Below, piece by piece: positions 8,354 through 60,491 of a stretch of 64,000 bases of DNA. The DNA is from an uncultured Methanosarcinales archaeon. GTDB lineage: Archaea; Nanobdellota; Nanobdellia; Woesearchaeales; ARS49. Below the pieces are notes generated by a model, which did no database searches, was not told where the DNA came from, and saw only the letters and a program-made list of their open reading frames with translations. The position numbers and the translations under genes were made by a program. Where the stretch lies: NCBI GenBank assembly GCA_964362535.1, contig CAYIEN010000001.1, positions 16,271-80,270 of the forward strand, written 5' to 3'. The stretch's first letter is position 1; every line of letters begins with the position of its first letter.

Positions 8354-8950
8354 TTAAACGACCTGAACGTTCAGCTCAATCTCGCCACTAACTGGCTGAT
8401 CGACCTGAATGTAATCTCCCTTATGGAACACGTTCAAGCTGAACACATACGTTCCCTTCGGAGGATTCGCCCCATTCGCAAACTTTGTTGCTTCAATGAC
8501 AACTTCTTGAATGCTCTGGTCATTTGGCTGTAAGACAGTCACGGATAAATCATTCTGCGCAAGCCACGGCGCAACCTGCACCGAAGTCACACCATCAATC
8601 GTGTTCGTTCCTTTATCGTATGCTTTCTTGAACTTCACATCAACCAAAAATTGATCTTTATCCGCAAATCGGTTTGTAAACGCAATACCAAACGTGTGGT
8701 GACTGCCAGGAGTTAATTGCACATACGTCTCGCTCACTGCATACTTCGTGCTTCCCGTGAACACTTCCATCAACTTGTCACGCGTCTCAGCAGTCATTGA
8801 GTAATCAATAACGGGCATAGTTTCCGGCTGCGTCGTAGCGGCAGGAGGAGATGAAAGAGGAGCAATCGGCGCTTCAGGAAGCTTTTGTAAAGCAGGCCCG
8901 CTACATGCCGCGAGCAACAACACAATGAGTAATGCAAATAGTTTTTTCAT
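8354..8950 (-). CDS. Secreted lipoprotein (function unknown)
   Basis: Lipobox LLLAACSG, a Pro-rich linker and a beta-rich C-terminal domain. Confidence 0.6.
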   Translation of the reverse strand: MKKLFALLIVLLLAACSGPALQKLPEAPIAPLSSPPAATTQPETMPVIDYSMTAETRDKLMEVFTGSTKYAVSETYVQLTPGSHHTFGIAFTNRFADKDQFLVDVKFKKAYDKGTNTIDGVTSVQVAPWLAQNDLSVTVLQPNDQSIQEVVIEATKFANGANPPKGTYVFSLNVFHKGDYIQVDQPVSGEIELNVQVV

Positions 8951-10048: not shown

Positions 10049-10939
10049 CTAAGAAATCGACTTCACTTGCACTTGCTTCGTGATGCTTGACGTGTAACCA
10101 TAATCAACCTGCACGGTCATTGTTGTCGTGTATGTGCCCGCAGTTTTCGGCATGCCGCCCGGCAACTCGCATCGGACTGTCGCGGCCTTGTTTGTGAAAA
10201 GAACAGGTTTATTGTCATTGCATACAAGCTGATTGTCTGCCAGCATTGCTGTTACAACTGCAGTATTCCACGCGGCGCCAGTCGATTGCGCAGAACACGC
10301 TTCCAAACTCTTATCCTGCGCGTATAACTGTCCATTACCCACATTGTTAATCGTGATAAGTACTTGCACCGCAACTGTTTTTTCTTGAGGGATGAGCGTC
10401 GGTTCAATTCTCGTAACCGCAACAGGCCCACCCTGACTGCTCAACGAAACAGGACTTGGCGTACACGGCTTCTTGGCCGTGCGACCAACAACATCCGTAT
10501 CAACACACACATTTGCGCTTGCAACCGTTTGATACGGATAACACACATTCAATCCCATGGACGTAGTCAAGGTCGTTGTCTGCGGCGGAAGAGCGTTTAC
10601 TTGCAGTTGTGCCGTGAGCAACATCTGATCGCCCGCAGGATAACCAGGACTTTTACCCTGCAAACCAAACGGACGAATACGATCGCCCTGCACGTGCACA
10701 ATATCATCTTCCGTCGCAATACTCACGTATCCTTCCTCGATGCTTGTTGCGCCGAGATTCGCGAGCTCAAACGTCATCGCAGAAGGACTCTTTGCGTAAA
10801 TAACAGGAGGAGGACTCTGATCCAAAAATTTCATCGTCACGCCCGTACTTCCCGAACGAATGTTGTAATCTTTAATTTGACCCGCAGAAGTACAGCCAAC
10901 AACGAAAATTAATATGGTTAGCAAATGGAGAAGTTTCAT
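10049..10939 (-). CDS. Secreted lipoprotein, paralog family member C (function unknown)
   Basis: Lipobox FVVGC, SPPPVIY, NVCVDTD....KKPCTPSPVSLSSQGGPVAVTRIEP and C-terminal MTVQVDYGY. Overlaps the upstream gene by 4 nt. Confidence 0.7.
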   Translation of the reverse strand: MKLLHLLTILIFVVGCTSAGQIKDYNIRSGSTGVTMKFLDQSPPPVIYAKSPSAMTFELANLGATSIEEGYVSIATEDDIVHVQGDRIRPFGLQGKSPGYPAGDQMLLTAQLQVNALPPQTTTLTTSMGLNVCYPYQTVASANVCVDTDVVGRTAKKPCTPSPVSLSSQGGPVAVTRIEPTLIPQEKTVAVQVLITINNVGNGQLYAQDKSLEACSAQSTGAAWNTAVVTAMLADNQLVCNDNKPVLFTNKAATVRCELPGGMPKTAGTYTTTMTVQVDYGYTSSITKQVQVKSIS

Positions 10940-12831
10940 GAGGTCGTTTGGAATGTTTTTTCTTCATCATTTAACTTAATGCGATTGCCACAGAACGCAT
11001 TTGCCTCTAACGAGTACAATGCTCCCGGCGTGAGGTCTGTCAGGTGGAACTCGTGCGTTGTGTTGCTCGTTGGGCTTGTCAAAATCATCGGCGAACAACC
11101 CACAATACTTCCACCAATACAATATTTGATCTCGGAAGAAACTGCGCTATCTGTTGTAAACGTCACAGTTGCTGTCGTCGATTGCGGAGTGGTTGTAATA
11201 GTAGTTGCAGGCGCCAGCTTCACGTTCTTACACTCAGTATTCGTCGTTTCCGTACTCGCATCACGAATCAGTAACGTTGTTTCTTTCGGCAAAGAATACG
11301 TGTAGTCTACTGCTGCCTTGAAATATTTCGTGCTGATCGGCGTCGCGCCAAGCAGACCTTCGTAATCAGAACTCGCAATACGTACCTGCGCACGCAACGT
11401 TATCGCATCGCCCGTTGCAATTTGCCCGAGAGGAAGCGAAAGCTGCGTAATTTCATAAACATTTGAGCTGACGTCATCACACCAGTCTGTTGCCCCCATT
11501 TTATCACAACTCGAAGCAACAATTGTGCCAGTACCAGTTAATGATGTAATAGTGATGCCTTTCGGAACAATTAACACGACTTGTTTCACATCCTTTAAAA
11601 CGCCTGGCCACTCATTCTTGAGCGAAATTCCAAGCGTTCCAACAAATTCTTCTGCTGTCTGGTCAATACCAATCGGGGGAGTGCTAAACCCCATTGCAAC
11701 ACTAACGGGACCCGACGTGTAAATAGAAACAGGATTGCGGTCAGTAATTCCATACTGCGTATACGGATCGATTTTTGCATCACGCAATTCTCTTAATCGC
11801 TTTTTGTCCATGAAATAGGTTTTGAGATAGGAAAGTGTCGTCATGTCAAATTTTGCTTCAATTGTAACAGTATCGCGTCCAACGGTGAACGTGTTCGGCT
11901 CAATCTGGCAATCAATATCCTGCGATTCATCCGCAGACATATCCAACGGTTTTGTCGAGGTATCAGGAGTGACTTTGATGTTTGGAGGATCGGTCACGGC
12001 AACAGGAGTGTTACCATTCTTTGCGGAACAACCAACGGTCACAGCCAACGGCTTGTCGATTGTTGTAGCTTTTAGCGTGGTATACACTCCTACTTTGTCT
12101 GTTGTTGCGAAAGACGCTTGCGTTGTCTTTAGAGGATCAATAGTAAGCCCGAGTTTTAATTGTGCATTCGAGTCGACTTTTGCGGTGTACGCGTCGCCAG
12201 TAGCATAAGCAAGTCGTTGGTCAATCGCTTTTTGCGTCCCTGTAAATAATTTATTGTATGTTGCCTTCACACTTGTCCAAATGCTCTTCAGCGCATCACC
12301 CGGATGAATTGCGGCACTTCCCCCTTCATTATCCAGCAAAGGATTGCTCACTTGAGTTAGTACGGGAAGCGTCGACCAAATCAAGAGCCCAATCCAGCAA
12401 AATAAAATGAGAAAGGAGAACTTTCGCGTAATCGATTGCAAAGCATCTTCTGCAAAAAAAATGAAGAACACAATCCACGTCGGCGCAATAATCAATATGA
12501 GCGCTACAGTTATACCGCCCATGAACGTCGCCCAATGCGCACCTAAATAATTACCTAGCAAAGGAACAAAGTATGCAAGCAAACCGATCCCTAGAAAAAG
12601 TGAAAGCTGGGCAGACCACGGCGTTTTTGCATCTTGATTTATTTTTTTAAACGCAAAAAACGCATACAATCCGAGCCCCACATACAGTACAAGAAAAATC
12701 GTGTTAGGCCAGGTCGGAGCAGTATTCAATCGACCAAACAACACATCACAAAACTGAATAAGAACTGCAAGCCAGAAAACAATTGTTGGCCCGATAGGTC
12801 TGTTGTCGTCTCTGTTCTTCGATTCAGCCAT
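10936..12831 (-). CDS. Polytopic membrane protein with large extracellular domain and C-terminal FN3-like module
   Basis: About five N-terminal TM helices, then ~450 aa that look extracytoplasmic and end in a TATVTFTTDSAVSSEIKY...HEFHLTDLTPGALYSLEA beta-sandwich pattern. The start is set at MAESKNRD (12831); the track ORF extends to 12864. Confidence 0.6.
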   Translation of the reverse strand: MAESKNRDDNRPIGPTIVFWLAVLIQFCDVLFGRLNTAPTWPNTIFLVLYVGLGLYAFFAFKKINQDAKTPWSAQLSLFLGIGLLAYFVPLLGNYLGAHWATFMGGITVALILIIAPTWIVFFIFFAEDALQSITRKFSFLILFCWIGLLIWSTLPVLTQVSNPLLDNEGGSAAIHPGDALKSIWTSVKATYNKLFTGTQKAIDQRLAYATGDAYTAKVDSNAQLKLGLTIDPLKTTQASFATTDKVGVYTTLKATTIDKPLAVTVGCSAKNGNTPVAVTDPPNIKVTPDTSTKPLDMSADESQDIDCQIEPNTFTVGRDTVTIEAKFDMTTLSYLKTYFMDKKRLRELRDAKIDPYTQYGITDRNPVSIYTSGPVSVAMGFSTPPIGIDQTAEEFVGTLGISLKNEWPGVLKDVKQVVLIVPKGITITSLTGTGTIVASSCDKMGATDWCDDVSSNVYEITQLSLPLGQIATGDAITLRAQVRIASSDYEGLLGATPISTKYFKAAVDYTYSLPKETTLLIRDASTETTNTECKNVKLAPATTITTTPQSTTATVTFTTDSAVSSEIKYCIGGSIVGCSPMILTSPTSNTTHEFHLTDLTPGALYSLEANAFCGNRIKLNDEEKTFQTTS

Positions 12832-12835
12832 CGTT

Positions 12836-14017
12836 CTACTCGAGCACAACCTCGAGCTTGGCAATGTTCAACGTCGTTTTCGGAATAAGCTCGAGATAGT
12901 TGTTGTCTTCAACAGCGAAACTGATAAGATCACGCTCATACGTCGGCGTCTTCTGATCGATGAAGTCACGCTTGCCATTGATGTTGATCTCGGCACGCTT
13001 TTGCTCCTTATCATCGACAAAGGTAATCTTAAGCGTGAGCTTTTTGTCTTTGTCAATCACATCATCGAATTGCGTCTCATTCAATTGGAAATAGTCAATG
13101 TAGCTCGGAGCTTCCTTCAGTTCCGTCTTCACTTTAATTTGCTCAATGCGATAATTACCCTTTGAAATCTTGAATAACACCGTATTACGGCCCGCAGACA
13201 ACAATGTCGGATCGAGTTCGATTCGGTTTACTGACTGACAGTCAGGAGTGCTCTGCGACACTTGCGCGTTGTTGACCAACACAGTCAGCGCACCAACATC
13301 CTGCTGTGTGCAAATCGGGAAGAACGTCAGTGACGCCTTCTCAACATTGCGAGCTTCCGTCGGCTCGAGCGTGATAACATTCGCGCTCTCTTGCTTCTCA
13401 ATATCAGTCGTATCGCCAATAATTTGGACATTCGAAAGATCATACTCATTCACGCGCCAAAACGCAAGACCAACACCTGACGTCGAAAACGTCAACGTGT
13501 TACTGCGCTGCACATCACGCAAATCAATAGGATTCACATTTACTGAAGTGGGACGCGCCTCATATACTACTTTGTCATTTAGCGCAACATTCAAAATTCC
13601 CGTACGCACAGAAGCATCCAATACTAATTTGATGTTACTTGTTAAATCCGGTTGTGGAACGGTAAACAAAACAGTCTTGGGCTCGTTCACAAACCAACCA
13701 TTACGCACAATAAACGGATTGAACGAATCAAGCACTTGCGCATTCTTTGTTTCGACAAGATACACATTCGGAATGGTGTGATCAAACGACGTTTCCGACT
13801 GGTAATCCAACTTGCCTATGTTCGCAAGCAAGAGCGTACGGCCATCAGTATCGTCACCATCAATAGAACTCTTATTATCGTCCCCGAACAACAACTCACG
13901 TCTGTTCTCAGGAGGCAAAAATAGTATGTAGAAGATTAACAAAATAGCAATAATACCGATAACACTTGCAGCTGCACCGCCACTGGGTGGCTTGATTTGG
14001 CCTTTTCGCGACAGCAT
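12836..14017 (-). CDS. N-terminally anchored extracellular protein (possible class III signal peptide)
   Basis: MLSRKGQIKPPSGGAAASVIGIIAILLIFYILFL followed by a ~350-aa beta-rich ectodomain. It is the first gene of a three-gene minus-strand unit. Confidence 0.6.
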   Translation of the reverse strand: MLSRKGQIKPPSGGAAASVIGIIAILLIFYILFLPPENRRELLFGDDNKSSIDGDDTDGRTLLLANIGKLDYQSETSFDHTIPNVYLVETKNAQVLDSFNPFIVRNGWFVNEPKTVLFTVPQPDLTSNIKLVLDASVRTGILNVALNDKVVYEARPTSVNVNPIDLRDVQRSNTLTFSTSGVGLAFWRVNEYDLSNVQIIGDTTDIEKQESANVITLEPTEARNVEKASLTFFPICTQQDVGALTVLVNNAQVSQSTPDCQSVNRIELDPTLLSAGRNTVLFKISKGNYRIEQIKVKTELKEAPSYIDYFQLNETQFDDVIDKDKKLTLKITFVDDKEQKRAEININGKRDFIDQKTPTYERDLISFAVEDNNYLELIPKTTLNIAKLEVVLE

Positions 14018-21600: not shown

Positions 21601-24174
21601 ATGAAAAAGAGGTTGGTGGCTTTAGTCATACTTAGCATACTTCTCTTACTTCCACTTGTTCGCGCGGACTTCAACGTACTCATTCCTGTCATTGAACACT
21701 TCCAGGAAGGATCATGGGAAGCACCCACCAGCGATCGCACCATCACCGTTGAAGCTTCCAAACCCATCGGCGAAATCGACTATTCCACCAGCGACGGCAG
21801 CACGACAACCGTCAAACTATACATGAACGGAACGCTGAAATTCACCACCTCCGGAAGCGACGGTGCAGTCGATGTTCCCGCAATCCTCACCAACAAAATG
21901 GAATGGGACCACAGCAACAGCGGCATCAGCGTCTGCACAACACCCACCACCAATATCTCCCGAGTCAACCGCTTTGCAAAAAACGACCTTGGCCCCATCT
22001 CAAACTTTTTACCCATAACCACAACTGACTCCGACCTCGACAACCACAACCTCGGCATCGGCGGCGCCGGCTGCAACCACGAAGTCGCACTCCCCCCGAA
22101 AGCAATGGTCTGGTTAGGAACCGAAGACGAAGACTACGGCACTATCGACGCCGACTTCGACACGCACATCTGGGCATGCATCGACGGAGATGAGGACGGA
22201 AACTGCGACTCTGATAACACTGACTGCGCTGCTGCTGGCGGAGAATTCTACGCAGACAGATGCTGCGGCGGAACCGAAGGAGATTACACTTGCACATGGG
22301 ACGCTGAAATCAACGCATACTGCGGTACTGCAGCAGACGGACCACACTGGGCAATACCTGAAGACGCAGGCACCATCAGCCAATTCACCACCTGCCCCGG
22401 AACAACACTACTCTCCACTGGCACCGCGCTTTACTCCTGTGGCGGTTCTGCTCCGACTGGAACAACCGCATTCCCTCCCGGAGCTGTTCCCGTCGTTCTC
22501 GGAGGACAAACGCATGATTTCATTTGCAACAGTGGTGTACTTACTGAATGCGCAGGAACACAAGAACCATTCTCCGACAACTGGGACGTTCTTGGTGACC
22601 TTGTTAACATTAGCGGCACCACCAACTATTGCACAAGCGACGGCGACTACACCCCTAACCTCGACGGCAAAAACAAAGAATCTTGCGAAACATACGGATT
22701 CACTTGGACCGGAACAAAATGCTGCTCCGAAGCAGATGACATCAATGAAACTTACGAAGACCCCGGAACCATCGGGGCATGCTGGGAAAAAACATTTGTC
22801 GCTAATGGCGCATTCGTCGCAAACCAAACCATCGCAGCCGTAACAGGACTGCTTCAAGGCTGCAAAACAAGTCCTGTCCCTCCATCACCTTTCCCCCGCT
22901 ACAATCCCGTCTGCACCGTCTTAACTGGAGCTTCACCATTCGGTCAATTGTTCTGCTCAAATACCTTCCAATGGAAAATAGATCCCACTAATAGTAACCG
23001 TAGCGTCAACAAATCCATCATCTGGGAAGCGAATGCAACTACCGTAGTCAGTGATTGCTGTGGAGCAACCGCGTGCTGGACCGGCGACAAATGCCAAGCA
23101 AACCAAATCGGTAGCGCACTCCCTATCAACTATCACGGAAACCGTTGCGAAGACGGACTCTGGGTCCCGCGAGAACTCCGATACAACTGGGACCACACTA
23201 GTAGCGGGTATTGCCCCAGCAACAATCAATGCCTCGTCGACCCGAACGGACTTTTCGCAAACAACAACGACACTTCCGCATATTACGATCCCGCAAAAAT
23301 TCGACCGCAATGCGTCGCACCAGGGCAATACCTCGCCGACCACTACTGCGAAAACGGAACTTGGACAACGCGCACCAAACTCATCGGACTCGAACTCCTT
23401 GACTACGCAGACGCCGTCTCGCCCACCAACTATCAACTCTTCTGCGGAACCTCCGCTGAAGCACTCAACTCGCCCGAAGCAGTTGACGGATTAGTGGGAG
23501 CTGCAAGTTGCTCTATTACTGGAACAAGCGTTCCCTGCATCAACAACTTCTGCGTATTATCAACACCAAGCGGCATCGCGTGGGGAGTTTCACTCAACAA
23601 ACCCATCGACGACACTAAGAGCGTTTTGCCCGCAATTGGTAAAGATGCAGACCTTTGTGACAGCGCAAGCGGAACCGGATACAGCTCCTGCGGAGAAACC
23701 ATCTGGTACAACACCGAACTCAACAGCGTCATCAGCATTCCTAGCGGCTCGCTCGGAAGCGCATCATTCCTCGACCTGTTCATCGCATTTATCAAATCAC
23801 CCATGGACACTTTGAAAACATTTGTCTTTACCTACCTACATAAACCTTTGAATGATTATACTTTCTTCAACAGCACACACACGTTCAACAAAATGTACGC
23901 CGCGCGCAACGACGACAAACACGCCTTCGCATTCCTCGAAGAAGGAATCTTTGAAAACAGCATCCGACGCGATTATTTGGGAGCGGACTATGGCAGCCTC
24001 AGCCTCGGCGTAAACCCCTGCAACGACTTGATTCTCCGCTATGACAACCTCGCATCATGCAACAGCACAACAGGATCCCTGGAAATCGTCCGACAACGAA
24101 CTGGCTCACCCACCGGATCCGGACCCTTACTCAAAGCATGGCGAGACATCACCGCAAAATTGAGGCTTAACTAA
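21601..24174 (+). CDS. Large secreted Cys-rich, sequon-rich surface protein (857 aa)
   Basis: Sec-type signal MKKRLVALVILSILLLLPLVRA, many Cys and many N-x-S/T sequons. First gene of the 21.6-32.9 kb operon. Confidence 0.7.
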   Translation: MKKRLVALVILSILLLLPLVRADFNVLIPVIEHFQEGSWEAPTSDRTITVEASKPIGEIDYSTSDGSTTTVKLYMNGTLKFTTSGSDGAVDVPAILTNKMEWDHSNSGISVCTTPTTNISRVNRFAKNDLGPISNFLPITTTDSDLDNHNLGIGGAGCNHEVALPPKAMVWLGTEDEDYGTIDADFDTHIWACIDGDEDGNCDSDNTDCAAAGGEFYADRCCGGTEGDYTCTWDAEINAYCGTAADGPHWAIPEDAGTISQFTTCPGTTLLSTGTALYSCGGSAPTGTTAFPPGAVPVVLGGQTHDFICNSGVLTECAGTQEPFSDNWDVLGDLVNISGTTNYCTSDGDYTPNLDGKNKESCETYGFTWTGTKCCSEADDINETYEDPGTIGACWEKTFVANGAFVANQTIAAVTGLLQGCKTSPVPPSPFPRYNPVCTVLTGASPFGQLFCSNTFQWKIDPTNSNRSVNKSIIWEANATTVVSDCCGATACWTGDKCQANQIGSALPINYHGNRCEDGLWVPRELRYNWDHTSSGYCPSNNQCLVDPNGLFANNNDTSAYYDPAKIRPQCVAPGQYLADHYCENGTWTTRTKLIGLELLDYADAVSPTNYQLFCGTSAEALNSPEAVDGLVGAASCSITGTSVPCINNFCVLSTPSGIAWGVSLNKPIDDTKSVLPAIGKDADLCDSASGTGYSSCGETIWYNTELNSVISIPSGSLGSASFLDLFIAFIKSPMDTLKTFVFTYLHKPLNDYTFFNSTHTFNKMYAARNDDKHAFAFLEEGIFENSIRRDYLGADYGSLSLGVNPCNDLILRYDNLASCNSTTGSLEIVRQRTGSPTGSGPLLKAWRDITAKLRLN

Positions 24175-24175
24175 C

Positions 24176-25420
24176 ATGCGCGGTCAGCTCACTTTGTTGA
24201 TTATCGTTGGAATTTTGATTGCGATTATGGTCGGGATTGTTTTGTATGCCGCCCGGTCAACCTCCGCAAAAAAAGGCGAATCAAACATCAACACCCAACA
24301 ACAAACAAGTGAACTCCTCAAACCCGTTGAAGAATTCACCCGACAATGCCTTGATCTCGCGGCACGAACCTCACTCAACCAACTCGGCGCACAAGCAGGA
24401 ACACTCTACGAAAGCCAAGGCGGATTAACTCCGGACCCGTATAGTAGTACTGATTACGTTTTACACAATAGCGTCAAAGTTCCGTTCGCAATACTTCCCC
24501 CACAAGGAGATGTAGGAACACTTTTCTTTGCAGACACTCCAAAATATCCCTGGGAAACATTCCCTGTCATTTACGACAACGGCAGCGTCATCATCACGGA
24601 ATACTTACAAGGATATTACGGCATTAACACACTCCCGCAACTGATCGGACCACAGTCAGTTCAAGAACAACTCGAAAACGCAGTGTTAGCTGCAACAACA
24701 ACCTGTCTTGACTGGACTATTTTCGAACCGCAAGGAATCACCGTCATTCCGCAAACTCCGCATCTCCGCGTCATTTTCGGAGAACGCAGCACATCCTTCC
24801 TCTTATCGTATCCTCTCGACGTAACCAGCACTGTTACTGGAACAACGTCGCACATCGACGCATTCGCCGTTGATATTCCCGTCCGCACCAAATCAATCCT
24901 GCAAGCAGCAAGAGCCACCATTGACAAAGACGTTAACGACATAACCTTTGATCCGTCCTCCGTTCTGTACGGTACCATCGGCATCTCAACATCCCGTGAA
25001 CTTTTCGATGACATTCTCACTGTTACCGACCCGAGCTCGACCGTTGGCGGCAAACCTTACCTCTTTCAATTTGCTCGCAAAAACCGCGCGCCTGCGATTC
25101 TCTGGATACAAAATGCAACGGACAAAGTCTGCGATTCAGGAACCGTCCACGCAAGCACATCTGTATTATTCGTCGATGCAACAGGATGTGGCACCGGTTT
25201 TGATTCAACAACTCTTCCTGTTCGCGCGTACGATCCTGACGAAGACGCAGTAACATTCTCGTTCCAAATCAGAACGGAACCAGTTATGCCATCAGCAACC
25301 TACACCGTCACGACCGCTGATGCGAGCTTCACTATTCTGCCCGTCACTGCACGCGCAACCGACGGACAATATACGGACGAACAAACCATCATCATTCCCA
25401 CTGATTACAAAACAACATGA
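24176..25420 (+). CDS. Class III signal-peptide (pilin-like) protein, 414 aa
   Basis: MRGQ-LTLLIIVGILIAIMVGIVLY N-terminus. It starts 1 nt after the upstream stop. Confidence 0.65.
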   Translation: MRGQLTLLIIVGILIAIMVGIVLYAARSTSAKKGESNINTQQQTSELLKPVEEFTRQCLDLAARTSLNQLGAQAGTLYESQGGLTPDPYSSTDYVLHNSVKVPFAILPPQGDVGTLFFADTPKYPWETFPVIYDNGSVIITEYLQGYYGINTLPQLIGPQSVQEQLENAVLAATTTCLDWTIFEPQGITVIPQTPHLRVIFGERSTSFLLSYPLDVTSTVTGTTSHIDAFAVDIPVRTKSILQAARATIDKDVNDITFDPSSVLYGTIGISTSRELFDDILTVTDPSSTVGGKPYLFQFARKNRAPAILWIQNATDKVCDSGTVHASTSVLFVDATGCGTGFDSTTLPVRAYDPDEDAVTFSFQIRTEPVMPSATYTVTTADASFTILPVTARATDGQYTDEQTIIIPTDYKTT

Positions 25421-28400
25421 GAAAAATATTCCTTATCGGGTTCATCGTTCTTCTCGCCATAGTTATCGGAGTCAACGCACAAACATCTGGCTGTTGCTGC
25501 AATCTCGCAAACGCAACCACCCAAGCAGACTCGTATTTGCCAAGCACTAGCTGCCTGCCCGCATTCCCTGACTTTGTTGTGCCAACCTCGACCGACATTA
25601 TTCTCAATAAAACGTGTTCAACAAAATGCGGAGAAGTCGCAGGATTACCACCCGTTCCTTCAGGTTCGTGCGGGTCTGCCGACTACAAACCACCCCCTGC
25701 AAATTTCAGCGCAAGCCCCCTTAAAGGAACCCACGCAATGCAGCTTACATGGATTGCGCCCTGCGCAGCTGATGCGTACATCATCAGCAGATGCACTGGA
25801 AGCGCGTGTTCCAGCTTTGCCGCGATCGGCGTTATTGGTGCTGGCACGAGTTTCATCGACGGCTCACCCGAATTGAAGTGGAACACTGATTATACCTACC
25901 GCATTATTGCAAAATACAGCATTCCCGGAGACAGCGCACCCGCAACAACCGTCGGCAACACAGGTGATATTGAGTGCGACTCACAATTTACCACCGACAG
26001 CTTCTGCATCTCTTCTTACTATTATGAAGGCTTCAAAACATATCTTCAAGCAAACGGATATGCAGGAAGCCCCTCAACAGCATCATCCGCATTTACCTCT
26101 GATTTTGCAACCGCGGTCAATACTGCCTTTTTCACCAAATTTAACAAAGGATATTCTTGCGACGCAAAAAACAAATTAATTTCTTTGAAAACGTGCGGCG
26201 TTGGCGAAATTTGCGTCGCAAAAGGAACAACACCCGCATGCATCACGCCCAGCAATTGCACACTCTCAACAGGAATATTCGGACTTGGCTCCACCACCAC
26301 CACTTGCGAAGGAACTTCCGAAGATACAAAATACTGCTTTATGGACAAAAGCGCAACACCCGTCGATGCGTGCTACACCTGCAGCCAAGCACTCACCTGT
26401 TACGATTACAAAAGTAAATCCTCCTGTGAACGCAACAACTGCTTCGTTGGCGCGTGCTCGTGGCGTGACACCTACACCGACATTGGAGGTGGCGTTTGCA
26501 TCGATGACCGATTCAATAGCTGTCCCCTCTGTAACAAAACCAGCACAACAGGAGCGCCCAACAGCCAAGCATACAACGCCGTCTTCGACCAATGCTCCCC
26601 TGAAAAAGCAAGCGCGCTCAGCACCCCTGCATATCCGTGCTTTTACAGCAACGGACAAGCACTCGACTGCAGCAAAGCCACCTGCAAAGACTATACCCCT
26701 GGACAATGTGGCTCACCCTCTGGCGGAATAACTCTCGCGGCAGATAACAGCATTTTGACTCCCAGCACAGACCCTTGTGGAATAAAAGTCTGCCAATATG
26801 ACCCAACACCAACCATTCAATGCCGTAAAAACGCGGACGCAACACCCTCAGACACATTCTGGCTTGACTGTGCGCTTACCGATGCCGGCTGCGAAAAAGA
26901 CTACTTTACTCCTGTAACGACGCTCATCCCCGTCGGCAGCGCAGGCAAGTACGATTTCCTGAACATCCGTATCTGGGAAAAGAGCAACTCCAGTGATTAC
27001 GGACATCTGGCATTACCCCCCGGAGAATTTACGTTAACCATCGGCGCACCCAACACGACAACCGGTGATCGCAAAGAACTCAAAAACTTCCTGACATACT
27101 TCTGCGCCAATGCATTGAATGCCACTGCATGCACCAGCTTTGTAGGCGTTAACAGTACTCAACTCAATATTAATGATTTAGCATTACAAGACGGAACCAA
27201 AGTTCTGTTTAACTTTACGCCCGGATGGAACACACTGCGATATTACACTCGCGACCCCGCGAATAACCTCGAAATCATCAAGAGCACCAGCATCTTCGCC
27301 TGCACCGCATGCCAAGGACCCAAAGTATTGAACTACACATTCACCCCTGGCAACCAAATCAACGGAACAGTCTATACTCGTTCAACAACCCCCATCGCAA
27401 GCGTATTGTTTAACGAAGCAGCACAACTCGTTTTCTCAGGCTACATCAAAGGACTCCTCACCCAAAATATCACCGCGACACCCAGCTCAGGATTTAATTA
27501 CGCATATACTTTTGGAATGCCTACTCCTGCACTCGTTGAAGGAAGCTACATCTTCTCCGTCAACTCGCGTGACACGAATGACGTCTACATGGGCGCACCG
27601 TTAAGCATTCCTGTCGTCGTTGACACAACAGCACCCATCGCAACGTACAGTCCAATTGACGGCACCATTTTCAAAACCGGAACCGTACCTGTCGTTATTA
27701 CTTTCAGCGAACCCATCCTCGTCAAAAACTTCACCATCATTGAATATCTCGTCATGAACACCACTGCCGGTCCCGTGCGATACCCTGTCACGCGTGACAT
27801 CACAAAACTTTTTGTCGGCAGCAAAAATACCACGTTCACTGCGAGTTTAACACTCACCGAAGGAAAGAAAACCATTGCGCCCATCGTAACTGATTACGCA
27901 GGAAATCCCTACGCAGGCAATAGCTCATTTGTCATCAACGCATTGCCGCCCGTGGTCACTATCAAAGAACCAGCATACGGCGTCAGCAGTACCTTCTCGT
28001 TCCCCCTCACCTTCGAAACGGACAGCCCATCTGAGTGTCGCTATTGGAGCAGTCAAACACTGCCGCCACCTGGAACATTCACCTCGCTCAACCCCTTCGA
28101 CAGCACTGGAACATACGAACACAAAAAAACAACGTTCAGCGAAATCACCAAAGAAGGAGTGCCCTTCAAATTCTACGTCCGCTGTGAAGACACCGAAACG
28201 GGAATCGGAAGCTCCACCTTCTGGCTCAGCGTCGACACCAGCGCACCCAAGATACTTACTGCCTACGCATCACCTAACCCTATTGTTCAATACCCGCTCC
28301 AGACCACACTCAAAGTATCCACTGACGATTTGACCGTCTGCAAATACAGCCCCACAACATCTTCTTACGATGCGATGGAATATACCTTCCCCTACTTCGG

Positions 28401-30432
28401 CATCCTCGGATTACCCACCCACCTCGTTAACGTCACCGTACCAACTGCAAGCTCCTACACCTACAACATTGCCTGCAAAAACGTCGCCGGACTCGGACCT
28501 GTCAGCGCAACAATTCCCTTCGTTGTTGACTTGACTATTCCGTTGAATATTACGAGCACCACTCCTGCATTTAACGGCAATGTTACCGTACCACTCAGCA
28601 TTGAAACAAACAAAGACACCTACTGCTATTACTCCCTCGGCGGAACGCTGAAACCTTTGGGTGACGTCAACAAATCAGCCATGGCACACGTCGCTTACGT
28701 GCCGATGCCCGGACCCGGACCATACAGCATCCCCGTCTATTGCAGCACTGGCGCGGATACTTCGCCCTTCGGAGTCGAAGAACGCAACATCACCGTCAGC
28801 TTCTTCATCGATTTGACGCCTCCGTGGATGACGTACGCCGACGACACCAGCAACAACCCCGAATATCCGCAATACTCCTACTTCCTTGACCGATTACGAG
28901 TCGCGTTCCTCGGAGCAGACAACGAATCAAGCGTCTCTCGATACCACTACCGCATCGAACAAAAAACAACCGGCGTCGTCATCAAAGACTGGACACCCAG
29001 CGTTGTGTTAACAGGATTGCCATTCTACGTAACGCCGCTCAATGTCAGCAACGGAGCCTCATACTTCTTCCGCGTTGTTTCCGAAAACCGCGCACGATTG
29101 ACCAGCAGCGAAATGCTCAGCGACGGTGTAACAATTGACATCACCAAGATACCGCCCCACTGCGTCAACGGCGAATTCGACCCAGGCAACGAAACCGACA
29201 TCGACTGCGGACTTGCTTGCCCACCATGTGGAGACTACCTCAACTGCATCGACAACATTGACTGCATCTCACGCATCTGCGAAAACGAAACCTGCCAACC
29301 CACCTACTGCGATGACAAACGTATCGGCGGCAACGAAACAGACATCGACTGCGGTGGCGGAACCTGCGACACCTGCGCCAACGGCCAACTCTGCGCAGCA
29401 AATACCGATTGCACAAGTCATTACTGCGACGCAGGCGTCTGCGGAGACAACCCCTGTTTCAACACAGTCCTCGATGGATTGGAAAGCGATGTTGACTGCG
29501 GCGGCTCATGCATTACAAAGTGCAACCCCGGACAAACCTGCAACACCGACTCTGACTGCGTCGCAGACAGCGACTGTGTAGATCACCTGTGCAGTGTTAT
29601 CGCTGACGAAGACGTTGATGGAGTGCCCGACGCGCGCGACAACTGCCCCTTCACTCCGATTGGTGAACCCGTCGACGAATTCGGATGCAGCGCAAGCCAA
29701 CGATACTCCTGTGGCGACGAAATTGATGACGCCTGGCGCATACGCTACTTCGGCGACGTCCTATGCGACGGAGACGGCATGGGGGTCGCGAACCCAGATA
29801 ACGACAACCGCAACAACCTCAAAGAATACCGCAAAGGCTCCAGCCCCATCGTCCCCGACGGCGGACTGTTCGGATGGATATTGCTGCTATTGCTCATCAT
29901 ACTCCTCGTTGCAGGATACATTTACCACCGCAAACACCCCGGATACTTCGCCGCACGCTGGAAAGAATTCACAAGCAGATTTGCAAAACAACAAAAAACA
30001 ACACCCACGCAACCCACAGCACATGTCTTGCCTGCATCTGTACGACCTTCCTTGCCTGACTGGCTCACTGTCGACGAACTCAAAAAACTCGGTCCCGAAG
30101 ACGTCAGCGCAAAAACATTCACTCAACTGGACACCTTTGTCAAAGGACAATTGCCCGCAAAACACCACGGCAAACTCCTCAAACAACTTGAACAAGGACC
30201 CCTCGATAAACTCCGAACACTCGCATTGGCCGGATTGTCCGCCAACGAACGCAAATTGTTGCTGAAACAATTACAACTTCTCCGACAAGGAAAACTCAGT
30301 AAAAAAGAAATGGAAGACCTCTTCCGCAAACTTAGAATCACCGCAGAATACTACAAGACGCATAAACTCGAACTCGAACACGAACTTGCTGCGTATTTGC
30401 GCGGAGAACGAGTCCGCAAGAGGAAAGCATGA
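25417..30432 (+). CDS. Giant (1671 aa) Cys-rich type I membrane surface protein / putative adhesin
   Basis: Signal peptide, FN3-like module, Cys-rich region and repeated Ig-like modules (VDTTAP, VDTSAP, VDLTIP, IDLTPP). Three tandem NETDIDCGG Cys modules, a thrombospondin-type-3-like DEDVDGVPDARDNCP, TM helix LFGWILLLLLIILLVAGYIY and a ~170-aa charged coiled-coil tail follow. ATGA overlaps at both ends. Confidence 0.8.
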   Translation: MRKIFLIGFIVLLAIVIGVNAQTSGCCCNLANATTQADSYLPSTSCLPAFPDFVVPTSTDIILNKTCSTKCGEVAGLPPVPSGSCGSADYKPPPANFSASPLKGTHAMQLTWIAPCAADAYIISRCTGSACSSFAAIGVIGAGTSFIDGSPELKWNTDYTYRIIAKYSIPGDSAPATTVGNTGDIECDSQFTTDSFCISSYYYEGFKTYLQANGYAGSPSTASSAFTSDFATAVNTAFFTKFNKGYSCDAKNKLISLKTCGVGEICVAKGTTPACITPSNCTLSTGIFGLGSTTTTCEGTSEDTKYCFMDKSATPVDACYTCSQALTCYDYKSKSSCERNNCFVGACSWRDTYTDIGGGVCIDDRFNSCPLCNKTSTTGAPNSQAYNAVFDQCSPEKASALSTPAYPCFYSNGQALDCSKATCKDYTPGQCGSPSGGITLAADNSILTPSTDPCGIKVCQYDPTPTIQCRKNADATPSDTFWLDCALTDAGCEKDYFTPVTTLIPVGSAGKYDFLNIRIWEKSNSSDYGHLALPPGEFTLTIGAPNTTTGDRKELKNFLTYFCANALNATACTSFVGVNSTQLNINDLALQDGTKVLFNFTPGWNTLRYYTRDPANNLEIIKSTSIFACTACQGPKVLNYTFTPGNQINGTVYTRSTTPIASVLFNEAAQLVFSGYIKGLLTQNITATPSSGFNYAYTFGMPTPALVEGSYIFSVNSRDTNDVYMGAPLSIPVVVDTTAPIATYSPIDGTIFKTGTVPVVITFSEPILVKNFTIIEYLVMNTTAGPVRYPVTRDITKLFVGSKNTTFTASLTLTEGKKTIAPIVTDYAGNPYAGNSSFVINALPPVVTIKEPAYGVSSTFSFPLTFETDSPSECRYWSSQTLPPPGTFTSLNPFDSTGTYEHKKTTFSEITKEGVPFKFYVRCEDTETGIGSSTFWLSVDTSAPKILTAYASPNPIVQYPLQTTLKVSTDDLTVCKYSPTTSSYDAMEYTFPYFGILGLPTHLVNVTVPTASSYTYNIACKNVAGLGPVSATIPFVVDLTIPLNITSTTPAFNGNVTVPLSIETNKDTYCYYSLGGTLKPLGDVNKSAMAHVAYVPMPGPGPYSIPVYCSTGADTSPFGVEERNITVSFFIDLTPPWMTYADDTSNNPEYPQYSYFLDRLRVAFLGADNESSVSRYHYRIEQKTTGVVIKDWTPSVVLTGLPFYVTPLNVSNGASYFFRVVSENRARLTSSEMLSDGVTIDITKIPPHCVNGEFDPGNETDIDCGLACPPCGDYLNCIDNIDCISRICENETCQPTYCDDKRIGGNETDIDCGGGTCDTCANGQLCAANTDCTSHYCDAGVCGDNPCFNTVLDGLESDVDCGGSCITKCNPGQTCNTDSDCVADSDCVDHLCSVIADEDVDGVPDARDNCPFTPIGEPVDEFGCSASQRYSCGDEIDDAWRIRYFGDVLCDGDGMGVANPDNDNRNNLKEYRKGSSPIVPDGGLFGWILLLLLIILLVAGYIYHRKHPGYFAARWKEFTSRFAKQQKTTPTQPTAHVLPASVRPSLPDWLTVDELKKLGPEDVSAKTFTQLDTFVKGQLPAKHHGKLLKQLEQGPLDKLRTLALAGLSANERKLLLKQLQLLRQGKLSKKEMEDLFRKLRITAEYYKTHKLELEHELAAYLRGERVRKRKA
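29155..29595 (+). repeat. Three tandem ~47-codon Cys-rich modules inside the giant gene
   Basis: HCVNGEFDPGNETDIDCGLACPPCGDYLNCIDNIDCISRICENETCQ / YCDDKRIGGNETDIDCGGGTCDTCANGQLCAANTDCTSHYCDAGVCG / PCFNTVLDGLESDVDCGGSCITKCNPGQTCNTDSDCVADSDCVDHLCS. Confidence 0.8.
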
Positions 30433-30911
30433 ACCGCGGACAAATCCTCGGACAAGTTTTCATTTTAATTTTGGCATCACTCATTTTTATCTTGATACTC
30501 GTTTATGGATACAAAGCGATTGGCCAATTTTCCAATAGGTCTGAACAAATCGCACTCATTGACTTCCAAAATAACCTCGCAAACGCAGTTAAGGCCATCA
30601 GTTTGGATTTCGGCAGCGTTAAACGACTCGACTTAACGGTTCCCTCTCGTTATCAACAACTCTGCGTGCTGTGCACAAACAGCCAAATCTGCGCGCCATC
30701 CGACACCTTTGCGCAAGCACACCCTCTCCTTGTCGAATCATGGCAAGGAGGCTCGCAAAACGTCTTTTTAGTTCCACTCTCCGAAACACCCATTCTACTT
30801 GAACGCGTCGAAGCAAAAGACGGAGCGTTCTGCACACCGTTCATTCAAGGCAAAGTATCACTGCGACTCGAAGGCAAAGGAGACCACACCTACATCGGAC
30901 CCTGGACATGA
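30429..30911 (+). CDS. Class III signal-peptide (pilin-like) protein, 160 aa
   Basis: MNRGQ-ILGQVFILILASLIFILILVYG with ATGA overlaps on both sides. Confidence 0.65.
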   Translation: MNRGQILGQVFILILASLIFILILVYGYKAIGQFSNRSEQIALIDFQNNLANAVKAISLDFGSVKRLDLTVPSRYQQLCVLCTNSQICAPSDTFAQAHPLLVESWQGGSQNVFLVPLSETPILLERVEAKDGAFCTPFIQGKVSLRLEGKGDHTYIGPWT

Positions 30912-31951
30912 AAGGACAATTCGAAGTACAATTCAACTGGGTATTCGTTCTGATCGCCGGCGCGGTTATTCTCGCATTCTTCTTCAGCATCGTCCTCAAA
31001 CAACGAGCCATCAGCGAACAACGCCTTGAATTGACACTCGCAGGCGAACTTGATGCAATAACGACCAGTGCAAGCGTCGCAAAAGGAGCAGCACAACGAA
31101 TCTCATTGCCCAAAGCAGGACTTGACTTTACTTGCTCCGATGAATGCTCGTGCACCTTCAGCGTCGGCTCTGTCACCAAAGATTATCGCGATAAACTTAT
31201 TTTTGCACCCAGCCACATTGAGGGAGATACCGTTGTCTTTTGGAGTCTTGATTGGCAAATCCCTTTCCGAGCAACAAATTTGCTGTTTGTCACCAATGAC
31301 CGCATCAAATACTTCTTTGTCCACGACGACAGCGCAGAGTCAGAACAACTCGTCGGCAAAGTCAAAGCATTACTACCCGAACAAGCCAATTCCGCATTTG
31401 TCACACTATCAGATGTCGATTGCAGGACAAACCCCAACTGCATCAAAAATGAAAACTACATCCGCGTTAAATTCGTTTTCCTGAATACTGACCCAGCATT
31501 TGGCGATTTACAACTTGATGATTCATTTAGTGATACGGAACTCGCGGCTGTTCACATTACTCCTGACGCCTTAACTTTCTTTAAGCGTGATAGCAAAACC
31601 GCAACCACATTCACTCCTGCATCCGCATACTACGCAGGCGACGCAACACTTTTCGCAGCAATTTTTTCCGCAGACGAACCCATGTACCGATGCAACATAC
31701 AAGCAGCATCACGACGACTCGGATACGTTGCACGCATTATTCAAAGCAGAATGGAAACCTTCCGCGCAGATGCAGCAATCATTGAACGAGGATGCGCATA
31801 CAACCCCGAAACTATCGCCCGCGTCGCGACCGTCGGCGACGAACAAGGCACATCACTTTCTTCCGGACTTACCGAATTACGCGGATTATCTCTGACACTC
31901 AACGACGAAAATGAAGCATTGCTCCGCCAAAGTTGCCCCACACTTTACTAA
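30908..31951 (+). CDS. Class III signal-peptide (pilin-like) protein, 347 aa
   Basis: MKGQ-FEVQFNWVFVLIAGAVILAFFF. Confidence 0.65.
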   Translation: MKGQFEVQFNWVFVLIAGAVILAFFFSIVLKQRAISEQRLELTLAGELDAITTSASVAKGAAQRISLPKAGLDFTCSDECSCTFSVGSVTKDYRDKLIFAPSHIEGDTVVFWSLDWQIPFRATNLLFVTNDRIKYFFVHDDSAESEQLVGKVKALLPEQANSAFVTLSDVDCRTNPNCIKNENYIRVKFVFLNTDPAFGDLQLDDSFSDTELAAVHITPDALTFFKRDSKTATTFTPASAYYAGDATLFAAIFSADEPMYRCNIQAASRRLGYVARIIQSRMETFRADAAIIERGCAYNPETIARVATVGDEQGTSLSSGLTELRGLSLTLNDENEALLRQSCPTLY

Positions 31952-31952
31952 C

Positions 31953-32438
31953 ATGAACACCTTACAAAAGAGAGCGCAAGTCAAAATGTTCGAAACACTC
32001 GCTGTACTGGTCGTGTTCTTTTTCTTCCTCATATTCGGCGCAAGCTTTTACTTCAAACTTCAGGAAAATGCCTTACATCGCGACCTTGACAAAAATACTC
32101 AGATACGGGCGGTACAAATTGCGCAAAAATCCGTACACTTGCCCGAACTCGATTGTTCATTCGTTGGTGTGCAGCGCGAAAACTGCATTGATTTTGACAA
32201 AATTACGGCGTTAACAGCACTCTTAATGTCAAGTGATGCTGCAAAAATAGAATATTTCAAATCATTTGAATATAGCACACTTCGATTCCACCAAGTCTAC
32301 CCTGAATCCGTGGACTACACTATTTACGATCGCAAACAAGGAGACAGTACAACGGCGTTGCAATTGCCCGTCGTTGTCTACCACGCCATCGACGGCAGTT
32401 ACGGCTTTGGGTATTTAGAGGTACTCGTGTATGCGTAA
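31953..32438 (+). CDS. Class III signal-peptide (pilin-like) protein, 161 aa
   Basis: MNTLQKRAQ-VKMFETLAVLVVFFFFLIFG. ATG 31953 lies 1 nt after the upstream stop; the track ORF starts at 31911 inside the previous gene. Confidence 0.6.
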   Translation: MNTLQKRAQVKMFETLAVLVVFFFFLIFGASFYFKLQENALHRDLDKNTQIRAVQIAQKSVHLPELDCSFVGVQRENCIDFDKITALTALLMSSDAAKIEYFKSFEYSTLRFHQVYPESVDYTIYDRKQGDSTTALQLPVVVYHAIDGSYGFGYLEVLVYA

Positions 32439-32898
32439 AGGACAAATGGAAATTTTAGGATTGGCGGTTATCGTTGTACTCATTATGCTTGGCGTTCTTT
32501 TCGCCGTGTTCTTTGTTTTGCGCGCGCCCGCATCCAACATCGCCCAAACCTACAAAGAATCACAACTTGCGTCAAGTTTGCTCACCACTATGTTGGCTAC
32601 GACGACACCTTGTCGGGGCGCGACCGTTACTGAACTTTTGCAAGACTGCGCATCAGCCGGACAACTCACCTGCCCCTACGGCACATCCTGCGATGAAGCC
32701 TCAAACGCTATCGGCACCATGCTTGAAGGAACACTCGGAGTTTGGAAACGCAGCTATCAATTCAGCATTACGGGCGCGTCAAACACTGAAGCAATCACGT
32801 TTGCTTCTGGCGACTGTACTGGCGAACGCGAAAGCCACACAAATCCTATTCCAACCGCTTCTGGAGCGCTCCAAGTCACGCTCAACCTTTGCGCGTGA
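32431..32898 (+). CDS. Class III signal-peptide (pilin-like) protein, 155 aa
   Basis: MRKGQ-MEILGLAVIVVLIMLGVLFAVFF. The start overlaps the upstream gene by 8 nt. Confidence 0.65.
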   Translation: MRKGQMEILGLAVIVVLIMLGVLFAVFFVLRAPASNIAQTYKESQLASSLLTTMLATTTPCRGATVTELLQDCASAGQLTCPYGTSCDEASNAIGTMLEGTLGVWKRSYQFSITGASNTEAITFASGDCTGERESHTNPIPTASGALQVTLNLCA

Positions 32899-39475: not shown

Positions 39476-40000
39476 TTATCCTGTGCCGTGAAAATGTCCC
39501 TTATTTCTTTTCCACTTCAGAATAAAATGGGGCAAAATGAATCCGCACACATACATGATGCTGACCACCCACGGATTGTGCGTTGGCAAACCAACGCCAA
39601 CCGCGAATTTATTGCTCAATTGCACAATCATGTAAATATTGATTAAAGCAATTGCGGGAATAAACAGTTCAGGAATAATCAAGTGCGCTCGGCGCAAATG
39701 TTCGATTTCTCTGATGACGACATCCATCAATGTGCCGAACGCAACCGCGAGAACCGCAACCGTGACAACTAAAGACAAATCATCAAACGCTAACAAAATA
39801 GGAATAAACACAAGACTCAAAATAAAATTGCCGATGATGGCAGACAAAAGAATGCCCCAGTAGACGACTTCATCCAAGAACTTAATCGCGTCGCTCTTGA
39901 CTGCGTTTGCCGACTGCAGAATTGCAGCAGCCTTATTGACTTGGTGCGGTTGCCAGCCCTGCGCAGCCATTGAACTACGTATTTCTTGAACGGTTGCCAT
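39476..40000 (-). CDS. Small polytopic membrane protein (4 TM), last gene of the MinD-type operon
   Basis: 174 aa with a ~40-aa cytoplasmic N-terminus and four hydrophobic helices. Its start overlaps the MinD-like stop (TAATG). Confidence 0.55.
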   Translation of the reverse strand: MATVQEIRSSMAAQGWQPHQVNKAAAILQSANAVKSDAIKFLDEVVYWGILLSAIIGNFILSLVFIPILLAFDDLSLVVTVAVLAVAFGTLMDVVIREIEHLRRAHLIIPELFIPAIALINIYMIVQLSNKFAVGVGLPTHNPWVVSIMYVCGFILPHFILKWKRNKGHFHGTG

Positions 40001-40704
40001 TAGTTAATCCACAACGCAGCAAGCTTCTTCATTGCTTGCGACGCTTTACAATCAGGATGACTATACGTAAACGGGTGACGAACAGCTTGGGCTTCGCTGA
40101 CATGCGCATCATTCGGAATGCTCGCCAGCACCGGAACTTCAAGAAGTGCTTGAATGTTTGAAGCGGCGATTTCATGCGAGTGCTGACCAATTCGGTTGAT
40201 GATGACCCCTTTGACTGGCGTTTTGAGTGCTTGACAACGCTTGATAAGTTTCAACGCATCAATAATTGCGGGTAATTCTGGAGTCGTCACAACAACAACT
40301 TCGTCCGCAATGGCTAATGCAGCAAGCGTTTCCTGAGAAATACCTGACGCGCAATCCAGAACAATCTGCGGCGATAACGATGCGACCAACGAAGGAATCT
40401 TCAGCAAATCTCGTTGTTTGCCTTGCGTCGCGTGCTTCAGCGCAAGAAGTCCCGGAATAACTTTCAACCCACTCGGCGCGTGATGATACACCGCGTCATT
40501 CAACTTCGTCGGATCGTCAAGAGCGTCCTGCAAACCAACAGGAACATTCGGCGTACCGAGATGTATTCCCACGTTCGGCAAGGACATATGTGCGTCGATC
40601 AATGTTGTATCAAGCCCGTGCTCAACAAAACTTGCCCCTAAAGAAATCGCGAGCGTCGTAACGCCTGTGCCGCCCTTCCCTGACGCGATTGCGAGAATGC
40701 TCAT
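40000..40704 (-). CDS. MinD/ParA-family P-loop ATPase (archaeal MinD-like)
   Basis: Deviant Walker A motif ASGKGGTGVTT in a 234-aa protein. Confidence 0.8.
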   Translation of the reverse strand: MSILAIASGKGGTGVTTLAISLGASFVEHGLDTTLIDAHMSLPNVGIHLGTPNVPVGLQDALDDPTKLNDAVYHHAPSGLKVIPGLLALKHATQGKQRDLLKIPSLVASLSPQIVLDCASGISQETLAALAIADEVVVVTTPELPAIIDALKLIKRCQALKTPVKGVIINRIGQHSHEIAASNIQALLEVPVLASIPNDAHVSEAQAVRHPFTYSHPDCKASQAMKKLAALWIN

Positions 40705-56814: not shown

Positions 56815-56818
56815 TGTT

Positions 56819-59821: not shown

Positions 59822-59873
59822 GCATTCATTTTCCAACCATAGAGTTTATAAATAAAAAGGAGCATAAAACAGC

Positions 59874-60486: not shown

Positions 60487-60491
60487 ACAAC

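Follow-up and report, generated by a model that had tools for sequence, protein, structure and literature searches.

A 64,000-nucleotide stretch of DNA deposited under the name of an uncultured Methanosarcinales archaeon, but placed by GTDB in the Woesearchaeales (GenBank assembly GCA_964362535.1, contig CAYIEN010000001.1, positions 16,271 to 80,270; hereafter the window, numbered from its first letter), carries a gene for a 1671-amino-acid predicted type I membrane protein. It is the third gene in a tightly packed run of seven, five of which encode proteins with pilin-like N-termini, and the order of the seven is identical in at least 20 species-level Woesearchaeota genomes. The protein has a conserved Cys-rich head, a mosaic stalk, a single transmembrane helix and a basic cytoplasmic tail whose core is found nowhere outside this protein family. 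We favor, with somewhat more confidence than doubt, the view that the protein serves a Woesearchaeal pilin-associated surface apparatus as its anchored stalk-and-head subunit, with the tail docking on an intracellular partner.

The 1671-codon open reading frame (ORF) is uninterrupted over 25417..30432 on the forward strand, where an earlier note, made from the letters of the window, had placed it, and its ATG overlaps the stop codon of the upstream gene by 4 nucleotides. Public data contain 17 full-length relatives of comparable length (33-75% identity), so the gene is certainly coding; nearly all of the named relatives are entered as 'hypothetical protein, Candidatus Woesearchaeota'. It is a single-copy gene among housekeeping genes (PheRS, RNase P p30, ScpB and gyrA) in conserved synteny, and on that ground a mobile-element or provirus origin of the locus was rejected. 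The gene set of the window is archaeal and DPANN-like, and the source is groundwater. Searches of the protein against Pfam and NCBIfam returned nothing above threshold, and the domain assignments given below are therefore based on structure prediction and on homologues.

A conserved seven-gene operon

The operon spans 21601-32898, with overlapping start and stop codons and a single TATA-like element, 'ctttttatag', upstream of gene 1. Besides the gene for the 1671-residue protein (gene 3), it comprises:

21601..24174 (+), gene 1, 857-amino-acid Cys-rich protein with a Sec-type signal and no transmembrane anchor (ORF, homologous loci)
24176..25420 (+), gene 2, 414 amino acids, class-III-like N-terminus MRG/QLTLLIIVGILIAIMVGIV (N-terminal motif)
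30429..30911 (+), gene 4, 160-amino-acid pilin-like protein, MNRG/QILGQVFILILA... (N-terminal motif, homologues)
30908..31951 (+), gene 5, 347-amino-acid pilin-like protein, MKG/QFEVQFNWVFVLIAGA... (N-terminal motif)
31953..32438 (+), gene 6, 161-amino-acid pilin-like protein, MNTLQKRA/QVKMFETLAVLVVFFF (N-terminal motif)
32431..32898 (+), gene 7, 155-amino-acid pilin-like protein, MRKG/QMEILGLAVIVV... (N-terminal motif)

The products of genes 2, 4, 5, 6 and 7 all start with a short basic leader, followed by [KR][GAS]Q and a hydrophobic helix of about 20 residues, which is the form of a class III (prepilin) signal. This N-terminus is conserved across loci in each of the five families (for gene 2, the [KR][GAS]Q and the helix recur in 20 or more loci), and the product of gene 4 is the best conserved of the five. 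A mechanical reading of the gene 6 frame starts at 31911; since homologues align only from the ATG at 31953, 2 nucleotides past the TAA stop of gene 5 (31949-31951), that ATG is likely to be the true start. The 857-residue product of gene 1 was considered as a paralog of the 1671-residue protein and rejected (BLASTP E 0.33); its orthologs in other species carry a Laminin_G_3 (lectin-type) domain.

Across the Woesearchaeota genomes that share the operon, identity ranges from 23 to 77%, and the flanks often include RNase P p30 upstream and an AsnC regulator downstream. The earlier note had not recognized this operon. Given its conservation, we take it as the functional context of the 1671-residue protein, in preference to the partners that the note had proposed, a MinD/ParA gene (40000-40704) that lies on the opposite strand, 7 kb from the operon and beyond ScpB and gyrA, or to two small ORFs at 56225-57232, which had no Pfam matches.

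Two further observations concern the distribution of the operon. Some of the genomes that carry it in full (L004, L006, L015, L017, L019 and others) are titled 'uncultured Methanosarcinales archaeon' or 'Candidatus Binatia bacterium', but, judging from the operon and its neighboring genes, these titles look like errors of automatic labeling applied to Woesearchaeota-type bins. Certain species have two inserted genes separating the operon from the AsnC regulator, one for a kinase-fold protein (APH or Pkinase, about 600-650 amino acids) and one of 304 amino acids (L001, 17187-19862; L083, 17605-20437); both are absent from the window.

Membrane topology

The features that define the topology and the cytoplasmic side of the protein are as follows:

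25417..30432 (+), gene for the 1671-amino-acid predicted type I membrane protein (ORF, hydropathy, homologues)
25417..25479 (+), Sec-type signal peptide, residues 1-21, ending VNA/Q (hydropathy, homologues)
29860..29925 (+), single transmembrane helix, residues 1482-1503 (hydropathy, AlphaFold2)
29926..30429 (+), cytoplasmic tail, residues 1504-1671 (charge, AlphaFold2, profile search, conservation)
30313..30345 (+), tail motif [DE][IVLM]FxxL, here EDLFRKLRITA, residues 1633-1643 (motif count)

A Kyte-Doolittle scan of the whole protein gave two hydrophobic segments only, residues 1-21 and 1482-1503. The first has the character of a Sec-type signal, and the mature chain that would follow it begins Q..GCCC in all homologues; the second falls in a stretch that AlphaFold2 (AF2) models as helical (residues 1483-1506). 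All 76 Cys and all 27 N-x-S/T sequons of the protein lie before the transmembrane helix, in a part with a net charge of -58, while the tail has no Cys, no sequons and a net charge of +17. The same asymmetry recurs among the 35 family members, from different species, that we compared: in each, a tail (69-382 residues, net charge +5 to +53) comes after the last transmembrane helix, and 33 of these tails are free of Cys. Signal, helix and the partition of Cys, sequons and charge together give strong, if indirect, support to a type I (N-out, C-in) topology. The Sec-type signal, the single transmembrane helix and the type I orientation proposed in the earlier note are all supported, and nothing places the tail outside the cell.

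A cytoplasmic tail restricted to the family

The tail begins with a juxtamembrane basic helix, continues through a variable Pro-rich linker into a helical core (residues 1594-1661) and closes with a poly-basic end. Its core is conserved to the same degree as the folded modules of the ectodomain (identity 0.68 to close and 0.32 to distant homologues); no such conservation is seen in the transmembrane helix or the proximal linker. When 1.84 billion representative proteins were searched with a profile of the tail, 52 sequences were retrieved, and each of them was either a short fragment or the far C-terminal end of a long member of this family: the tail core is found only at the C-terminus of the family of the 1671-residue protein. 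It had no match in Pfam, NCBIfam, PDB sequences or PDB folds, the best PDB sequence match to the profile being a designed protein (E 0.024) and the best Foldseek match to the C-terminal model having an E of 0.77. Within the wider family, about a third of members have an alignable core.

A short motif reaches further than the core does. The pattern [DE][IVLM]FxxL occurs 34 times in 35 tails, versus 0.75 expected from shuffled sequences (no more than 6 in any of 200 shuffles), and its density in tails is 27 times that in ectodomains. It recurs in tails that are not otherwise alignable and is common to most relatives. We read it as a short amphipathic helix, borne on a basic tail, that may serve for docking. 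The conserved tail and its recurrent motif lend support to the idea, put forward in the earlier note, that the protein is coupled to an intracellular partner.

In the earlier note, the last ~170 residues had been described as charged and heptad-like, and the tail as a coiled coil. The charge is real, as the +17 above is carried on 168 residues, whereas the 3.5-residue hydrophobic periodicity is at shuffle level, with 18-57% of shuffles matching or exceeding the strongest observed value. The AF2 model of residues 1240-1671 (pLDDT, the program's per-residue confidence, 63 overall and 50-65 in the tail) shows a helix beside the membrane and a disordered Pro-rich linker, together with five short helices (7-15 residues, with Gly or Pro between them) and a single long one of 33 residues. 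The coiled-coil reading of the tail, which would call for heptad periodicity unbroken for at least 28 residues, is corrected accordingly.

Two other resemblances, both noted by eye, were set aside. The pattern LSxxERxxLL...GKLSxKE...L..ITxxYYxxH in the tail core recalls the LuxR/GerE helix-turn-helix, but its spacings are off by 3-4 residues, and neither Pfam nor a PDB profile search returned a helix-turn-helix in the tail. The motif helix also resembles MIM1, the MIT-interacting element of ESCRT-III, but differs from it in hydrophobic spacing; no Vps4/CdvC-type gene was seen in the window, and the AAA ATPase encoded at 5375-6514 carries a proteasomal OB domain.

Head and stalk of the ectodomain

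Beginning at the membrane-distal end, the ectodomain can be divided as follows:

25492..25500 (+), CCC motif, C26-C28, nearly invariant (comparison of 16 homologues)
25693..25959 (+), N-terminal FN3 domain, about residues 93-181 (AF2, Foldseek; fn3 sub-threshold in homologue P0011 at 105-188)
25975..26892 (+), head, with an alpha/beta subdomain (about 196-276) and a Cys-rich core (280-492) (AF2, Cys count, conservation)
26914..27951 (+), three BIg-like beta-sandwiches, B1 (500-640), B2 (641-735) and M1 (736-845) (AF2, Foldseek, SiiE profile, hhalign, homologue Pfam)
27952..28803 (+), three related modules of ~95 amino acids, M2-M4 (846-1129) (hhalign, invariant Cys)
28804..29136 (+), FN3-like module M5, residues 1130-1240 (PDB profile; fn3 sub-threshold in homologue P0012)
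29161..29595 (+), three tandem 8-Cys modules, E[TS]D[IV]DCGG (motif scan, homologues, AF2, Foldseek)
29605..29850 (+), TSP3 region, canonical DEDVDGVPDARDNC and a degenerate bacterial-type TSP3 (ANPDNDNRNNLKEYRKGSSP) (motif, homologue Pfam)

An AF2 model of residues 22-735, built from an 18-sequence alignment, reached a mean pLDDT of 71. It is confident over the N-terminal segment that bears the CCC motif, over the FN3 domain (about residues 95-181 in this model; pLDDT about 85-92 at model positions 74-160), over the alpha/beta subdomain of the head and over two beta-sandwiches that occupy residues 500-735; the Cys-rich core is poorly modeled at 280-393 and remains at low confidence to residue 492. 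Single FN3 domains in the PDB match the N-terminal FN3 with TM-scores of 0.65-0.81 and a Foldseek probability of 1.0. The Pfam fn3 model found nothing at E<=1 in the protein itself and gave sub-threshold scores of 17-21 bits in homologues. There are 38 Cys up to residue 492, and comparison with distant homologues identifies the membrane-distal head as the best conserved region of the ectodomain. This conservation fits a conserved partner, for example other products of the operon, better than a fast-evolving host receptor.

The CCC motif consists of three consecutive Cys located 5 residues past the predicted signal cleavage site, in a beta-strand of the model (pLDDT about 80). It may form a triple disulfide staple or a metal site.

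The stalk is a string of modules. A profile of the whole family matched SiiE among PDB sequences at positions 667-831 (E 2.7e-4), and Foldseek with the N-terminal model retrieved the BIg repeats of Salmonella SiiE at a probability of 1.0 over about 255 columns. Pfam BIg families did not match the 1671-residue protein; at aligned positions in homologues, Big_13 scored 52 bits in P0011 and Big_12 was found in P0004, and an OmpL47-type match in the region was sub-threshold. Comparison of the modules with each other by hhalign related B2 to M1 (90% probability) and showed M2, M3 and M4 to be one repeated module (72-96%) with invariant Cys pairs at 874/923, 975/1020 and 1070/1109. Module M5 was recovered at 1142-1234 as titin FN3 by the family profile against the PDB (E 7.6e-4 for a single domain, 5e-11 for a multi-domain chain). 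Linkers of the form [VI]D[TL][TS][AIP]P are exactly four, at 735, 939, 1037 and 1131.

Closer to the membrane, the 8-Cys modules start at residues 1258, 1306 and 1355 and are modeled with a pLDDT of 57-76. Foldseek gave only weak knottin or conotoxin matches for them (E>3, probability <=0.41), and matches to EB and DUF7107 were sub-threshold. The same module is found at 40-50% identity in many proteins of Myxococcota (Polyangiaceae, Nannocystales) and Altiarchaeota (loci L034-L082), a distribution that suggests a widely exchanged extracellular module poorly captured by Pfam models. The canonical TSP3 motif DEDVDGVPDARDNC occupies residues 1399-1412 with the pattern DxDxDGxxDxxD(N)C, and a degenerate second copy lies at about 1459-1478. 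Pfam called neither copy in the protein itself; among homologues, TSP3_bac was called in five (42 bits in P0011) and TSP_3 in two.

Most of the architecture in the earlier note withstands this comparison. The CCC motif, the Cys-rich stretch and the three tandem modules it had written as NETDIDCGG are present, and its 'FN3/Ig-like modules' (with their VDTTAP-type linkers) and 'TSP3' repeat hold because of the Pfam calls in homologues, the AF2 and Foldseek results and the profile comparisons. Its Cys-knot repeats were not confirmed by the structural matches to the 8-Cys modules. In all, the stalk would comprise about seven or eight beta-sandwiches and three small Cys modules and, by a rough estimate from typical Ig-domain lengths and the module count, might be perhaps 40 nm long when extended. 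Family members vary here: one of 2692 amino acids has about 25 Cys modules, and one of 1162 amino acids lacks the beta-sandwich modules of the middle region. The ectodomain is thus modular, whereas the head, the transmembrane helix and the tail stay constant.

Relation to known surface systems

The closest parallel in organization comes from the type IV pilus loci of Thermoproteales (Makarova, Koonin & Albers 2016, PMC4858521). These encode two kinds of large protein, an 'S-layer-like' one anchored at its C-terminus and a secreted, adhesin-like one, along with several small proteins whose class III signals lead them to be taken for minor pilins; multiple conserved Cys occur in nearly all of these components. 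Similar to those loci, the woesearchaeal operon encodes one large protein with a transmembrane anchor, one large protein with a signal only and several small class III proteins (the latter recognized at the level of their motif), with multiple conserved Cys in nearly all components. Unlike them, it belongs to a DPANN lineage, the Woesearchaeota, has no detectable sequence relationship to the Thermoproteales genes, lacks an adjacent ATPase or TadC-like platform, and specifies a long conserved cytoplasmic tail with a motif of its own. Since the plan is shared without a sequence relationship, we assign the operon to no named family; by analogy, the comparison places the 1671-residue protein within a recognized class, the large accessory proteins of archaeal type IV pilus loci. 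The architecture, which the earlier note regarded as unusual, is in this light less so.

A 2026 preprint also notes large Ig-rich adhesin-like proteins, arCOG05616 and arCOG07037 among them, in many type 4 filament (TFF) loci of archaea (bioRxiv 10.64898/2026.04.22.720090). As in these proteins and in bacterial GhpA, the grappling-hook protein, strings of Ig/FN3-type folds are predicted here beside pilin-like genes; a fragment of GhpA was a weak Foldseek match at rank 29. The Cys-rich head, the 8-Cys modules and the combination of transmembrane helix and tail are undescribed for these proteins.

Two bacterial systems offer partial likenesses. The minor-pilin/PilY1 operon (fimU-pilVWXY1E) likewise combines about five pilin-like genes with a large, Sec-exported, non-pilin surface protein. 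The resemblance is organizational only: PilY1 is not membrane-anchored and has no cytoplasmic tail, whereas the 1671-residue protein ends in a transmembrane helix and a helical tail, and Pfam found no PilY1/PilC beta-propeller in it. With Salmonella SiiE the protein appears to share tandem BIg-type beta-sandwiches. SiiE, however, is secreted by a type I system and has 53 repeats and no transmembrane helix or tail, compared with about three BIg-like modules set in a mosaic here; the TSP3 element, too, is limited to one canonical copy and a degenerate one.

Candidate roles of the protein

In the reading that we favor, the 1671-residue protein would be exported by the Sec pathway as a disulfide-rich and probably glycosylated chain, held in the membrane as a type I protein. 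From the membrane-distal end, it would present the head, then the stalk with its TSP3 region of the Ca-binding type, then the transmembrane helix and the basic helical tail. It would be the anchored large subunit of a Woesearchaeota-specific apparatus encoded by the seven genes, in which the pilin-like proteins and the two large proteins co-assemble into one cell-surface structure for contact or adhesion. The conserved head would bind a conserved partner, most simply other products of the operon, and the amphipathic [DE][IVLM]FxxL element of the tail would dock the complex to a partner in the cytoplasm or at the inner leaflet.

Several points weigh against this reading. None of the five small neighbors matches a pilin family in Pfam or NCBIfam, and a homologue search with the 160-residue one returned only unannotated 'hypothetical' relatives; 'pilin-like' is therefore used here for their N-terminal motif alone. 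The annotated ORFs of the window include no assembly ATPase, TadC/FlaJ-like platform or prepilin peptidase, and none lies within 10 kb of the operon in the five other loci for which gene calls and Pfam labels were obtained (L001-L003, L083, L084), although TFF assembly machinery may be encoded elsewhere in the genome. An extended pilus cannot carry a protein that is anchored in the membrane. Confidence in the AF2 model of the tail is low (pLDDT 50-65), and a subclade of the family (P0010 and P0013, for example) has no tail core, which must therefore be dispensable there. Finally, the listed sequencing runs are of groundwater DNA only, and no RNA-seq runs were found.

Among the alternatives, an S-layer or S-layer-like wall protein with a C-terminal transmembrane anchor fares best, though we regard it as unlikely; the pilin-like genes would then be merely co-located, or would use the protein as a conduit. 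In its favor are a single-copy gene in housekeeping surroundings and conserved synteny, the large size of the protein, its wealth of sequons, its C-terminal anchor and a head that is conserved rather than variable. Yet no S-layer family or PGF-CTERM match was found in Pfam or NCBIfam at E<=1, a content of 76 Cys with small knottin-like modules is atypical, and the tail is far longer than a sorting signal; a conserved cytoplasmic segment of 168 residues is needless for anchoring.

An adhesin, as the earlier note proposed, taken here as one that stands alone and serves for a host or substrate independently of its neighbors, seems to us somewhat less likely again. The strict synteny of the seven genes, kept even where identity falls to about 25%, points to a joint function, and in the ectodomain the distal head shows the highest conservation, not the highest variability. 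The FN3/BIg/TSP3 modularity, including the match to SiiE, does resemble that of giant bacterial adhesins, and DPANN archaea depend on cell contact.

A more specific scheme, which we hold to be improbable as it stands, would give the protein an integrin-like role in a Woesearchaeota-specific contact machine, encoded by the seven genes and derived from type IV filaments: the head would bind the pilin-like/lectin complex or a partner cell, and the [DE][IVLM]FxxL helix of the tail would couple contact, in either direction, to an intracellular protein. Most doubtful of all is a transmembrane signaling receptor whose tail relays ectodomain sensing to a regulator, nucleic acid or the division/segregation machinery, for despite the conserved motif and poly-basic end of the tail, the AsnC-family regulator directly downstream in many loci and the Ser/Thr-kinase-like gene next to the operon in some species, the tail matches no signaling or DNA-binding domain (Pfam, NCBIfam, PDB sequence or PDB fold), its core is lost in one subclade, and the kinase gene is absent from the window.

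Other class-III-like and lipoprotein-like genes in the window

Towards the end of the window, a second cluster of genes with class-III-like N-termini lies at 58481-63539 on the forward strand; several of its products are Cys-rich, and none had a Pfam match. The N-termini are:

58481 (+), KG/MAEAALVAVILAV
60468 (+), KRG/MSLGLELTVVAIAALVV
60902 (+), SRG/QSIVAMPLSELLSIILVAVLV
62242 (+), RRG/QQQMVLFVIMEIVLVII
63051 (+), MRG/QVSTGYMLSWIIF

This cluster may represent a second pilin set, with its machinery beyond the window. A 393-amino-acid ORF at 12836-14017 on the reverse strand also has a class-III-like start, MLSRKG/QIKPP...IGIIAILLIFYILF, and overlaps a 642-amino-acid ORF (10936-12864, reverse strand) with weak fn3 and purple-acid-phosphatase-N matches near its C-terminus. 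Three paralogous proteins of ~300 amino acids (399-1340 and 1408-2340, forward; 10049-10939, reverse) have no Pfam matches; they share lipoprotein-like N-termini (..LVGC, ..LAAC and ..VVGC) and similar C-termini (..V.YGY....T). The ORF at 8354-8950 on the reverse strand starts with a lipobox-like LLAAC.

Implications for Woesearchaeota

Woesearchaeota, an abundant DPANN group without cultivated members, are assumed to live by cell contact, and we know of nothing reported about their surface machinery. A seven-gene operon beside core housekeeping genes, its order unchanged in all the species examined and its products all annotated as 'hypothetical' and belonging to no Pfam family, is a strong candidate for the main surface or contact apparatus of these archaea. 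The conserved head offers a handle for antibodies or for labeling in cryo-electron tomography, and the 10-residue cytoplasmic motif one for pull-downs (tail peptide KKEMEDLFRKLRITAEYYK). If the integrin-like reading were true, the 1671-residue protein would provide a transmembrane link between adhesion and signaling of a kind not so far described in Archaea.

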